NCBI GenBank assembly: GCA_965263245.1
Contig: CBDHHR010001146.1
Span: 782,244 to 806,243, forward strand
DNA from: Metamycoplasmataceae bacterium
GTDB taxonomy: Bacteria; Bacillota_I; Bacilli_A; Mycoplasmatales; Metamycoplasmataceae
DNA length: 24,000 nt
Direction of reading: 5' to 3'
The notes under the pieces are model-generated. The model was not told where the DNA came from, made no database searches, and was given only the letters and a program-made list of their open reading frames with translations. This document shows, piece by piece, positions 10,258-18,985 of the stretch. The stretch's first letter is position 1; each line of letters begins with the position of its first letter. Made by a program: the position numbers and the translations under genes.

Positions 10258-13053
10258 TTAAAATCCTCCTTGGGAAACAAAAACAAATAATGATAATCCC
10301 ACTGAACCAATTGTACTTGCAATTCCTATGAGCGAAGTAAGTAAAATTAATCCTTTTCTTGATTTGAATTTTAAATTATTTTTCTTTAATTTTTTCTTAG
10401 ACTTTATTAAACTTATTAATGATGCACCTGATGCGATTGAACCAAGGGCTAAAACTCCTGCTGAAGAAGCTAAAATGTATTTGAAAGTTTTAGAAATAAT
10501 TACTTTGCTATTTAAAACCTTTTTAAAATTTCAATCCACTGAATCAAGCATTTTTGCGATGCCTTCATAATCTAAATTTAAATCATTTATTTTACTCAAT
10601 GATGCTATTAATTCTTCATCAAGTTGTTTTAAAAGCTTTTGTTTTTCTTCTTCAGAAGCACCTTTAAGATTTTTTATTTCATCAACTTTTTCTTTGTGTT
10701 TTAAACGTAAAATTTCAATTCAGATTTTTTTTGTATCTGCTTTATAATCTTCTGATATTTGTTTAAGTTTAATTGCATTTACAAAACTATTTAAAAAATC
10801 TTCATTTTGAAAATAATTTGTTTGTGAATCATTATATAAATCCTGAAATTTTTTTAAATATTTTTTTTCTTCATTTGAATCAGAAAGTTTTATTTTACTT
10901 AGTTGATTTAAACTTTTTTTATGAATTTCGTCAATTTCATCTCTTACTTTATAAATTTCGTCAGTATTTGCTTTTTTAAATATAGGTTTATAAAATGTGT
11001 AAAGTTTTCGAGATTTTGAATTATAAAAACTAAAAGAAACATAAAGAGTATCATCGTTAGCATATCTAAAAAAGTGTTTTCTATATTTTAAATCTAAATT
11101 TTGCGTATCGGTTTCAAGTTCGTTAAGATTTAGAAAAATATCTTCGAAAGTAAAATCAAAATTTATTTGAGGAGCTTGTAAATTCTCAATATTTTCTTGA
11201 ACAAATGAAGAGTTAACTTCTAATTTTTTCTCAATTCATTTTTCCAAATATTGTCTTTGGGAAAAATCATTATATCAGTAGCTTATAATTTCTTCCCAGG
11301 GTTCTTTTAGTTTTTTTAAAGAAGGGTTTCAACCAGCATATTTATCATTTGAAGAAGCATATTTTCAATTTATTTCATTATTAAAAGTAAATTCAATAAG
11401 AAAGTAAAAGAAAGGATTATTTGCAGGATCATCTGGATTATTAAAAGCAATCTTATTAGTTCAAACAAATCTTGGGTAAGAAAGAAGGTTGTCATCAGGA
11501 GGTTGATTGCCATATTTTTTGTATCATTTTCCACCAGGATTTATTTTTTTAAGTAATTCAATTCATTCATCATTTTTACGAAAAATTTTTTCTGGACCAG
11601 TTTGATCTTCAAGACTATCTCATTCATCTAAAAATAAATATTTTGGTTTGTTTTTCGATGAAAAATCTACTAGTTTTTGAAGATCAATAATTTTTGTTGA
11701 AAAAACAAATATTTCCTTAGAAAAAATTTTTTCATCTGTATTTTTTATTAAATCTTCAAAAGTAAATTCTAACTTAATTTTTCTATAATCAATACGATTT
11801 TCTGGAGTGCTAACAGGAGAATTTATAAATTCAATTTTAAAATCTGTTAGATCAAACGAAGGAAATTGAGTTCTAAAACTTTCAAGTTTTGCAAGTTTTA
11901 AACTGTTAAATCCGTTGGTGTTGAACCAATCATACAGTTGTTCTAGATTATTAACTTTATTACTTAAAAAATTTGTTTGCTCGACTTTAAAAACTTTGTC
12001 ATCATTAATTTCGTCTACTAAATCATTAATTAATGATTGAAACTCTTCTTTTGGGTTGTAAAAAAGAACGTTAGGAACTTTTATTCTTAAATTTTTAGTA
12101 ATTGATGCATCCCCTAATTTTAATTTAATACTTCCTTCTAAAAAAACATCAATTTCTTTAAAACCATTACTTTTTTCTCTAACTGCAGATTTACTGATGT
12201 TAATTGAGGAAACTTCAACATCAGAATTATTTTCTATTTTAAAATTTTCTTTTAATATCAATTTAAAATTTTTAAGTAAATTATCATTAACTTCATTAAT
12301 ATCAAGACCATTTGTTCCAAATCTATCAATTTCATAACTATTAAGATTATTTTTAAAACTTCAAGTTTCTGAAGTAATATTAGCAATTAAAGCATTAGCA
12401 AGGGTGTTAATTTCGTTTAATATATTTTTTTTAACATAATTTTTAACAAATTCTTTTAGTCCTAAATTATAAGTGTTGCTTTTGATAGAGGCTTCTCTAA
12501 GTCATAATTCTTTAATTTCGGGAAATTTTTTATTAAAAAAATTAGTAACGTAAAGAACGTCTTTATCACTTGAGTCATTTCACCTTGGTGAAAATTTACT
12601 CATAATGTCTAGAACGTTTTCTTCAATTAAAACAGGAACAATTTCCTCTAATTTTGGAATATCCAAATTTATAAAATGATTTGTAAAATTTGTAACAATT
12701 CTATTAATTGTTTTAGTTCTTATATCTGGTTCATTTAAGCCATCTTCTAACTTATTAACATCGATTAAATTTAATTTTTTTTCAATTTCTTCTTTTATAT
12801 CATAACCATTATCAAAAGCTTCTTTTCATTTAAGACCCAAACTTTCTATATAATTTTCAGGAATATAATCTTTATAATATATTAAAATTGAATTTCAATA
12901 TGCAGATGGTTTATAATTTCCGTTATTAATCAAAGATCTAATTTTTATTAAAATTTTTGCATTAAGAAAATTTAAAAATAATTTATATTCTTCTGAATCA
13001 ATTGTTGTTACATCCCTTTTAAAACGATTATTATAATTTACGTTATATTCCAT
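10258..13053 (-). CDS. F1-like ATPase cluster 931-aa protein, second (distal) paralog; C-terminal two-helix membrane hairpin; function unknown
   Basis: Starts at ATG 13051-13053 (MEYNVNYNNRFKRDVTT...). It is in frame with track fragment 11620..12261. I traced 11190-11620 codon by codon (many TGA=Trp, no TAA/TAG), and the remainder translates in parallel with the proximal copy. It ends ...ILASSAGVLALGSIASGASLISLIKSKKKLKKNNLKFKSRKGLILLTSLIGIASTIGSVGLSLFVFVSQGGF* at TAA 10258-10260. AAAAAGG Shine-Dalgarno. Confidence 0.85.
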
Positions 13054-13140
13054 AATTTAACCTTTTTCAATTGTACCACTTAAAAGAAAAAATTTAATTC
13101 ATTTTTCTTAATTATCTCATTAATTTTTAAAACAATTATT
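13054..13140 (-). pseudogene. Relic of the 3' end of the epsilon-like gene, marking the duplication junction
   Basis: Plus-strand attcatttttcttaattatctcattaatttttaaaacaattatt (13098-13140) matches attcattttttttaattatctcattaattgttaaaccaatcatt inside the epsilon-like CDS (about 18941-18984). aatttaaccttttt directly 5' of both ATGs is shared. The relic has internal deletions and no open frame. Confidence 0.7.
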
Positions 13141-18875: not shown

Positions 18876-18985
18876 AATTTAACCTTTTTTTGAAGTGTCT
18901 TTTTGCTTGTCTAAAAGAAAAAGCTCTAATTTAGATTCTAATTCATTTTTTTTAATTATCTCATTAATTGTTAAACCAATCATTT
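16080..18985 (-). repeat. Direct repeat copy 1 (~2.9 kb): 931-aa gene plus the 3' end of the epsilon-like gene
   Basis: See copy 2. The 3'-terminal ~430 nt (16083-16510 vs 10261-10690) differ by only a few substitutions per 100 nt by eye. Confidence 0.9.

Follow-up and report, generated by a model that had tools for sequence, protein, structure and literature searches.

The window analyzed here, 24,000 nucleotides (nt) of the Metamycoplasmataceae bacterium assembly GCA_965263245.1 (contig CBDHHR010001146.1, positions 782,244 to 806,243), carries a gene cluster for an F1-like ATPase in which gene 5, coding for a large, predicted membrane-anchored subunit, is present twice. The G+C content is ∼24%, and TGA interrupts the long genes under translation table 11; with code 4 (TGA = Trp) the cluster is an unbroken minus-strand array, organized in the direction of transcription as gene 1, gene 2, a gamma-like gene, a gene in the epsilon position, gene 5 copy U, an alpha-like gene, a beta-like gene, and gene 5 copy D. 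Located 3′ of copy D are rpmF, mraZ, rsmH, an ftsA-like gene, ftsZ, a permease gene, and ileS.

Copy U (16080 to 18875, minus strand) occupies the canonical place between the epsilon-like and alpha-like genes, and copy D (10258 to 13053, minus strand) is an extra, lineage-specific copy between the beta-like gene and rpmF. Each is an intact code-4 open reading frame (ORF) of 931 codons and 2,796 nt including the stop, and the starts and the stops are both offset by 5,822 nt, in agreement with an earlier reading of the letters alone (the sequence-only reading), which had reported a 931-amino-acid (aa) gene occurring twice in the same orientation. Because the organism uses code 4, the copies are seen as fragments under table 11, and the pairing that the same reading drew between 11620 to 12261 and 17436 to 18080 is one of table-11 pieces of the two genes. 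Direct-repeat families 85 to 93% identical lie in register along the copies, but their spacing drifts from 5,822 nt to 5,819, 5,816, and 5,810 nt and back to 5,822 nt, and the equal lengths therefore come from compensating indels rather than from a perfect duplication. In global alignment the copies share 81% nt identity over the coding sequence and 71% aa identity; the similarity is not of low complexity, and the proposed homology is thus true paralogy extending beyond AT-rich resemblance. Divergence is 19% overall and reaches 38 to 49% in 120-nt windows of a central module, the three longest stretches of perfect identity measure 76, 61, and 54 nt, and homology fades within ∼100 to 180 nt upstream and ∼17 to 28 nt downstream of the ORFs.

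In all three assemblies of the species, both genes are uninterrupted. One of these assemblies (L086), made independently from another sample, has the same U-alpha-beta-D-rpmF layout, and in the protein collection, which holds only five 90%-identity clusters of the gene 5 protein, U-type and D-type proteins are found on three of three contigs of the species. The second copy could have arisen as an artefact, a repeat falsely expanded during assembly, as the sequence-only reading had allowed, but the layout of L086 and the presence of both types on all three contigs exclude it; U and D also differ at 19% of nucleotides plus several indels and have distinct flanking footprints, and artefact is so improbable an explanation that it can be set aside.

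The two ATPase subunit genes between the copies are recognizable. The alpha-like product (14587 to 16080, minus strand; 497 aa; PF00006, 227 bits) is without the N-terminal delta-binding helix, its residues 3 to 6 aligning to residues ∼30 to 33 of F1 alpha chains in the PDB, and the beta-like product (13136 to 14587, minus strand; 483 aa; PF00006, 237 bits) has the Walker A motif GGAGVGKT.

Copy number and origin of copy D

Gene 5 is single in all six comparison clusters (L083, L085, L087, L088, L089, and L006, from Mycoplasma alligatoris). The papers that define F1-like X0 clusters describe them as seven-gene units in which gene 5 codes for a large protein with two C-terminal transmembrane (TM) helices, and no duplication of gene 5 is reported there, including in a 126-strain survey (PMC3369863; PMC12994834). 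The eighth gene is thus as unusual as had been supposed. A comparison of relatives, which the sequence-only reading had also proposed, gives a copy number series of 1, then 2, then 3: one in the six clusters, two in the window species (three of three assemblies), and three intact copies in a sister lineage (L001) whose alpha and beta are 98.8% and 97.3% identical to those of the window. In L001, a 931-aa copy (R_a) lies upstream of alpha, and copies of 924 and 918 aa (R_b and R_c) are in tandem downstream of beta. The more distant L083, a circular 864-kb genome with an alpha 87% identical to the window alpha, shares the synteny of the window (truB-ribF-rpsO … rpmF-mraZ-ftsZ-ileS) with one gene 5; rpmF directly follows beta after a 68-nt gap, and there is no copy D. 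With a single gene 5 in L083 and the other relatives, copy D is a derived, lineage-specific insertion.

U and D are equally far from the gene 5 of L083 (48% aa identity), U groups with R_a (83% aa identity), and D groups with R_b and R_c (80% and 78%). Among U, D, and the L001 copies, orthologous quartet sites number 168, concerted ones 32, and others 19. This equidistance, together with the grouping and the quartets, places the duplication after the L083 split and before the split of the window and L001 lineages.

Traces of the event are retained at both junctions of copy D. On the left, the 82-nt beta-D spacer (13054 to 13135, minus strand) abuts the beta stop and is a decayed epsilon-like 3′ end, with its first 41 nt 93% identical to nt 326 to 366 of the epsilon-like gene. 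The end of the spacer reproduces the AAAAAGGTTAAATT-ATG context found upstream of copy U. On the right, the D1 repeat family runs 17 nt beyond the D stop, and a stretch of ∼17 to 28 nt (10230 to 10257, minus strand) resembles the first alpha-like codons; it is short and AT-rich, so the right boundary is approximate. The native sequence then resumes: the D-rpmF spacer has, over its 3′ 70 nt, 86% identity to the entire beta-rpmF spacer of L083, and rpmF (L32, 52 aa; 9972 to 10130, minus strand) keeps its own conserved upstream region (10131 to 10200) 3′ of the insertion. Taken together, the epsilon remnant, the alpha-like stretch, and the native rpmF spacer define a copied unit of ∼2.9 kb that was placed right after the beta stop and consists of gene 5 together with ∼100 nt from the 3′ end of the epsilon-like gene and ∼20 nt from the 5′ end of the alpha-like one. 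Judged from these junctions, the unit may have been inserted directly behind beta, or a 5.8-kb [epsilon′-gene 5-alpha-beta] segment may have been duplicated in tandem with subsequent loss of the second alpha-beta pair.

The third copy in L001 has a different footprint. The 512-nt spacer between the tandem copies g5b and g5c (L001 18661 to 19172) contains a decayed beta fragment (beta nt 984 to 1081 and 1164 to 1452, with an internal deletion of ∼80 to 90 nt) and an epsilon remnant, from which it follows that this copy came from a 3.3-kb tandem duplication of [beta 3′-epsilon′-gene 5] with its left end inside beta. R_b is D-type over its entire length, which argues against formation of the third copy by unequal exchange between U and D. 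A contig (L002) that seemed to represent a genome with one downstream copy only was rejected: over its first 336 nt it matches the pseudo-beta spacer between g5b and g5c of L001 at 100% identity, and the contig breaks inside the repeat.

Searches for further relatives yielded little. When genome contigs were scanned with the beta-like protein, the matches were ∼80 loci for ordinary F1 beta (∼42% identity), and only the M. alligatoris cluster was useful; a scan of JGI metagenomes with a gene 5 alignment returned no relatives, and exact look-ups of P0001, P0003, and P0022 found no record. On a contig close to L083 (L084, 1.95× coverage), gene 5 is broken into three ORFs (440, 376, and 96 aa; 1010 to 3801), either through sequencing error or because the gene is disrupted.

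Copy D starts 82 nt after beta with the same ribosome binding site and ATG context as U. No terminator-like structure is found before or after D, and there are no minus-strand terminators in the window; promoter-like matches are at chance level (97 versus 93.6 expected). On the simplest interpretation of this layout, transcription from the operon promoter probably continues through D, making it an eighth gene. The U stop TAG overlaps the alpha GTG start (TAGTG, 16078 to 16082), and alpha and beta share one base at 14587 (14585 to 14589), overlaps that suggest translational coupling of U, alpha, and beta. Copy D ends in TAA, with no coupled gene 3′ of it.

Gene 5 protein, selection, and exchange between the copies

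Gene 5 codes for a protein with a C-terminal membrane hairpin, predicted by hydropathy in both copies (U aa 864 to 927, at 16095 to 16301 on the minus strand; D equivalent at 10273 to 10479). It consists of two hydrophobic helices joined by an 18-residue loop, KSKKKLKKNNLKFKSRKG, in which nine residues are lysine or arginine; the hairpin is 92 to 98% identical between U and D, and the protein ends in GGF. Neither copy matches a Pfam or NCBIfam family above cutoff, and a DUF1542 match at aa ∼781 to 826 was left unused because it is below cutoff (22.8 and 20.0 versus 24.3). In an exhaustive HMMER search of 1.84 billion representatives, full-length relatives are present only in this small clade, and distant proteins of 900 to 985 aa match only the last 100 to 260 residues. 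In L085, L087, and L088, similarly, the gene 5 proteins have only the C-terminal stalk and hairpin in common with U and D, and their last residues are GGF or GGI. Across the uncultured clade, gene 5 products are 886 to 1,031 aa long.

By simple hydropathy, no N-terminal hydrophobic segment (signal peptide) is present in U, D, or the L083 protein, and the U and D ORFs are not extendable upstream; the M. alligatoris protein has such a segment at aa 7 to 26. The positive-inside rule would place the basic loop in the cytoplasm and the 860-aa N-terminal part outside the cell. A full-length AlphaFold2 model was unusable (predicted local distance difference test [pLDDT] of 47, predicted template modeling score of 0.31); a model of residues 535 to 835 is acceptable (pLDDT of 72) and predicts a mixed alpha/beta domain followed by long helices, with no significant match in the PDB.

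The evolutionary rate of gene 5 exceeds that of the catalytic core several-fold. In the window-L001 comparison, synonymous divergence (dS) is 0.19 to 0.32 for all genes, whereas the ratio of nonsynonymous divergence (dN) to dS (omega) is 0.36 to 0.37 for gene 5 and 0.02 to 0.13 for the others; against L083, omega is 0.74 for gene 5 (48% aa identity) and 0.09 to 0.30 for the others. At equal dS, gene 5 is thus by far the fastest-evolving component. Both copies are nonetheless under purifying selection overall (omega of 0.36 to 0.37), and in the hairpin region the proportion of nonsynonymous differences is 0.01, versus 0.15 to 0.21 for synonymous ones.

Divergence between U and D is strongly modular. 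Residues 1 to 480 and 720 to 931 are 70 to 98% identical, whereas residues ∼480 to 720, a hypervariable central module (16716 to 17438 on the minus strand in U; ∼10894 to 11616 in D), are 32 to 57% identical, with dN of 0.365, dS of 0.489, and omega of 0.75. Downstream copies diverge faster than U in this module. The flanks have a dS of 0.24 to 0.29, near the window-L001 level, and the center has a dS of 0.49, near the window-L083 level (0.41 to 0.64), a pattern that fits homogenization of the flanks after the duplication.

A mosaic tract in U gives a direct example of exchange. Over gene nt ∼121 to 420 (18456 to 18755, minus strand; partner in D at ∼12634 to 12933), sliding identities show U to be 89 to 97% identical to D-type copies and 75 to 81% identical to its own orthologue. 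The tract has 9 concerted and 4 orthologous sites, with 35 private to R_a, and such clustering was reached in 0 of 2,000 permutations. Of 33 polarized differences between two strains of the species, 14 are derived and identical to the paralogue in the same genome (P of 4e-9 to 2e-5), and these paralogue-identical differences cluster at nt ∼940 to 1240. The mosaic tract and the strain polymorphism point to gene conversion that is still going on between the copies. This polarized nucleotide test replaced a residue-level reading in which strain polymorphisms at U residues 873 to 876 and 351 to 357 were taken as micro-conversions from D; that reading was rejected, as R_a has the same states, which are therefore ancestral. 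At the strain level, gene 5 is no more diverged than alpha-beta (99.2 to 99.4% identity).

Exchange between the repeats had been predicted in the sequence-only reading, and that part of the prediction is borne out by the mosaic tract and the strain polymorphism; the exchange seen is, however, nonreciprocal gene conversion and not loop-out. The further proposal was a genetic switch, in which homologous exchange between the repeats, here taken to be RecA-mediated, excises or amplifies the 5.8-kb alpha-beta segment and sets the ATPase ON or OFF or alters its dosage. U and D are indeed direct repeats flanking alpha and beta that demonstrably exchange sequence, they contain perfect-identity blocks of 76, 61, and 54 nt, and segmental duplication is recurrent at the locus, as the pseudo-beta between g5b and g5c of L001 attests. 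However, all three assemblies of the species show one and the same arrangement, which was in place before the species split and has remained stable, and no U/D hybrid protein is found among the 15 billion proteins of the collection. At the level of assembled sequence, where rare variants may be missed, no assembly that shows the region has a deletion or amplification form, and alpha and beta always lie between the copies. Divergence between the repeats is also high, at 19% overall and 38 to 49% in the central 120-nt windows, with no perfect match longer than 76 nt, and the D-type character of the third copy throughout is explained by the local 3.3-kb tandem duplication. An OFF state would moreover be irreversible, and so not a switch, because the excised alpha-beta circle would be lost. 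The switch is accordingly regarded as very improbable.

Relation to known F1-like ATPase clusters

The cluster has the F1-like X0 architecture (Beven 2012): alpha-like and beta-like genes are adjacent and have strong F1 alpha and beta matches in the PDB, gene 1 has ∼11 to 12 hydrophobic segments, and gene 5 has two C-terminal helices (the latter two by simple hydropathy). It departs from the canonical set of seven genes in one copy each, having eight genes with gene 5 twice. There are no ORFs for F0 a, b, c, or delta within the cluster.

Gene 1 (21527 to 22861, minus strand) is a table-4 ORF for a predicted polytopic membrane protein of 444 aa with ∼11 to 12 hydrophobic segments by simple hydropathy; it has no Pfam or NCBIfam match, and its position and size match gene 1 of L001, L083, and L006. 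Gene 2 (20134 to 21534, minus strand) is an ORF for a putative cytosolic protein of 466 aa with a K/E-rich helical (coiled-coil) N-terminal half and a globular C-terminal part; it has no family match and no relative among PDB chains, and its length is 406 to 522 aa across the uncultured clade versus 163 aa in M. alligatoris. Gene 3 (19304 to 20131, minus strand; 275 aa) is gamma-like, with matches below cutoff to PF00231 (E value of 2.5e-4) and to MSC_0622_gamma (85.5 bits, cutoff of 95), and gene 4 (18879 to 19304, minus strand; 141 aa), which has no Pfam or NCBIfam match, is assigned as epsilon-like from its position and size.

In L085 (939 to 3224), L087 (502 to 2814), L088 (395 to 2584), and L089 (1334 to 3166), an additional gene of 610 to 770 aa lies directly upstream of gene 1, coding for a protein with four to five N-terminal TM helices followed by a long coiled coil and no family match. 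These genes were considered as gene 5 paralogues and rejected, as they have no similarity to gene 5. The window lineage is without this gene, and rpsO directly precedes gene 1.

The closest curated families are those of Type 3 clusters. For beta, alpha, and gamma, the specific NCBIfam models with the highest scores belong to Type 3, yet none reaches its curated cutoff (beta, 524 versus 570 for MSC_0618_beta; alpha, 422 versus 520 for MSC_0619_alpha; gamma, 85.5 versus 95), and gene 1, the epsilon-like gene, and both gene 5 copies are undetected by the MSC_0624_12TM, MSC_0621_epsi, and MSC_0620 family models. The M. alligatoris cluster, as a positive control, passes all six Type 3 models comfortably. 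The Type 2 models MMOB1660 and MMOB1670 are missed by wider margins (415 versus 600 and 370 versus 850). In PDB comparisons the beta-like protein scores ∼380 bits against ordinary F1 beta and 292 bits against G1-ATPase beta, and the best alpha-like match is narrowly the Mycoplasma mobile G1-ATPase alpha (296 versus 289 bits). Alpha-like relatives 45 to 87% identical are found only in uncultured Mycoplasmataceae/Mycoplasmatales assemblies. Despite its known architecture, the cluster thus represents a separate, divergent, uncultured lineage outside the curated Type 2 and Type 3 families. This unclassified lineage spans the window cluster (13136 to 22861) plus L083, L085, L087, L088, and L089.

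Type 3 clusters, as in Mycoplasma mycoides (MSC_0618 to MSC_0624; MMCAP2_0575 to MMCAP2_0581), have the same gene order and cast, with Protein 5 encoded by MSC_0620/MMCAP2_0577, but the window cluster has eight genes and a gene 2 product of 466 aa rather than ∼160 aa. The window gene 5 product also has the C-terminal hairpin without the N-terminal signal peptide of Protein 5 (MSC_0620/MMCAP2_0577/MMOB1650). Type 3 clusters co-occur with, and in most cases adjoin, genes for MIB and/or MIP (Berlureau 2026), whereas no MIB or MIP is present beside the cluster in the 24-kb window, L001, or L083, where the flanks are housekeeping genes (rpsO, ribF, truB, rpmF, mraZ, rsmH, ftsZ, and ileS). The Type 2 G1-ATPase cluster that codes for the gliding motor of M. 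mobile (MMOB1610 to MMOB1670; PDB 9io5) has the same seven-gene architecture; however, the window beta is without the ∼300-aa N-terminal dimerization domain, aligning to residues 300 to 764 of 9io5_A, and the window gene 2 product is unlike any solved chain.

Proposed roles of the two copies and other features

U and D are both intact, are under purifying selection, and have the same N-terminal and C-terminal modules, and it is plausible from their sequences that they serve a single F1-like head as two membrane partners, either alternative or heteromeric, as first put forward in the sequence-only reading. The preferred explanation, held with confidence that is evenly balanced, is a functional paralogue expansion, in which co-expressed isoforms dock on one F1-like motor in an eight-gene operon. 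The ∼2.9-kb segment would have been copied behind beta between the L083 and L001 splits; the N-terminal module (aa 1 to 480) and the C-terminal stalk and hairpin (aa 720 to 931) would dock onto the rest of the machine and be kept alike partly through recurrent short-patch gene conversion and partly by selection. The almost neutrally diverged central module (aa ∼480 to 720) may carry partner or cargo specificity. With D read through as the eighth operon gene, two isoforms would be made and would plug into the single motor, alternatively or together.

Joint use of both copies has a known parallel. F-type ATP synthases of cyanobacteria, chloroplasts, and some other bacteria have paralogous peripheral-stalk subunits b and b′, which are small (∼160 aa) and have one N-terminal TM helix. 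As in the window, the duplicated component of the rotary ATPase is an accessory subunit that is mostly helical and anchored in the membrane, and both paralogues are in one operon; gene 5, however, codes for 931 aa, has a C-terminal hairpin, varies in copy number from 1 to 3, and has no sequence or demonstrated structural relation to b or b′. By this analogy, U and D could sit together in the same complex as a heteromeric stator resembling the b/b′ heterodimeric stalk. The near-identical membrane hairpins and helical stalk regions and the retention of both copies across the species split are compatible with such a pair, as is the proposal that Protein 5 is a peripheral-stalk analogue (PMC3369863; PMC12994834). 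However, one gene 5 suffices in the six comparison clusters and the sister lineage has three, which fits interchangeable isoforms better than a fixed 1:1 pair; the putative heteromer is considered unlikely.

Alternatively, D may be a recent segmental duplicate without a distinct role that is drifting to loss, with its high omega reflecting relaxed constraint and its decay delayed by conversion. Gene 5 is the most often disrupted subunit, with nonsense mutations in Mycoplasma pulmonis UAB CTIP and Mycoplasma gallisepticum R-low (PMC3369863) and the fragments in L084, and the omega of 0.75 in the central module and the faster divergence of downstream copies there are in keeping with loss. But D-type copies have been intact since before the window/L001 split (dS of ∼0.25 to 0.29) in five of five genomes or strains, overall omega is 0.36, the anchor is nearly invariant at nonsynonymous sites while synonymous sites vary, and the lineage gained a further intact copy instead of losing one. 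Because D-type copies remained intact and constrained from before the species split and were then multiplied, a decaying duplicate is the less likely account and is rated as rather improbable.

Several points weigh against the isoform explanation itself. No role is assigned to gene 5 in the model species either (PMC3369863; PMC12994834), and the specificity module is accordingly hypothetical. A central omega of ∼0.75 to 1 is equally expected from relaxed constraint on a spacer region. With the signal peptide missing, the 860-aa bulk may lie on either side of the membrane, the full-length structure model is poor over most of its length, the sole confidently predicted domain having no recognizable fold, and co-transcription and translation of D are deduced from gene layout.

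A more speculative extension of the isoform explanation, offered tentatively, is that gene 5 codes for an exchangeable adaptor, with the two to three copies forming a cassette family shuffled by gene conversion and the central module picking the partner or substrate. In MgPa/MgPar of Mycoplasma genitalium and vlhA of avian mycoplasmas, one expression site for a surface adhesin or antigen is accompanied by many silent, partial donor cassettes. Gene 5 resembles these systems in its conserved flanks, variable center, and nonreciprocal segment exchange between paralogues, but has only two to three full-length copies, all with a start codon and ribosome binding site, and surface exposure is only putative. 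Paralogue arrays of MIB-MIP, with up to four pairs, are present beside Type 3 clusters (PMC12994834) and are similar in being lineage-specific multiplications of fast-evolving accessories that work with one F1-like motor; those are N-terminally anchored surface proteins with antibody-binding and protease roles, whereas here the membrane subunit of the motor itself is multiplied.

If the adaptor reading is correct, the cluster would be one motor with several variable outputs, a motor-side counterpart of the MIB-MIP arrays. F1-like motors power gliding in Type 2, and in Type 3 the MIB-MIP defense by antibody cleavage has recently been shown to depend on them; Protein 5 is the component of these mycoplasma ATPases whose role is least understood. 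What is new here is a second gene 5 within the known F1-like X0 architecture, a natural experiment and a pointer to an unclassified cluster lineage. The 1-2-3 copy series separates constant, homogenized regions (N-terminal module, stalk, and hairpin) from the divergent central 240 residues, and so offers a concrete guess as to which part docks to the motor and which may give specificity.

No Rfam family or tRNA is present in the whole window. Three code-4 antisense ORFs, at 5225 to 6361, 14711 to 15277, and 20699 to 21412 (plus strand; 378, 188, and 237 aa), lie opposite ftsZ, alpha, and gene 2, and are most likely by-products of AT-rich code-4 coding sequence and not genes. The rpmF-mraZ spacer (8900 to 9971) is 1,072 nt long in the window, compared with 124 nt for L083 and 634 nt for L002, and neither an Rfam family, a tRNA, nor a remnant of the cluster was found in it. 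GC and AT skew flip within this spacer, which also contains a K-rich ORF of 103 aa (9451 to 9762, plus strand) that is called as a 105-aa gene in L086.

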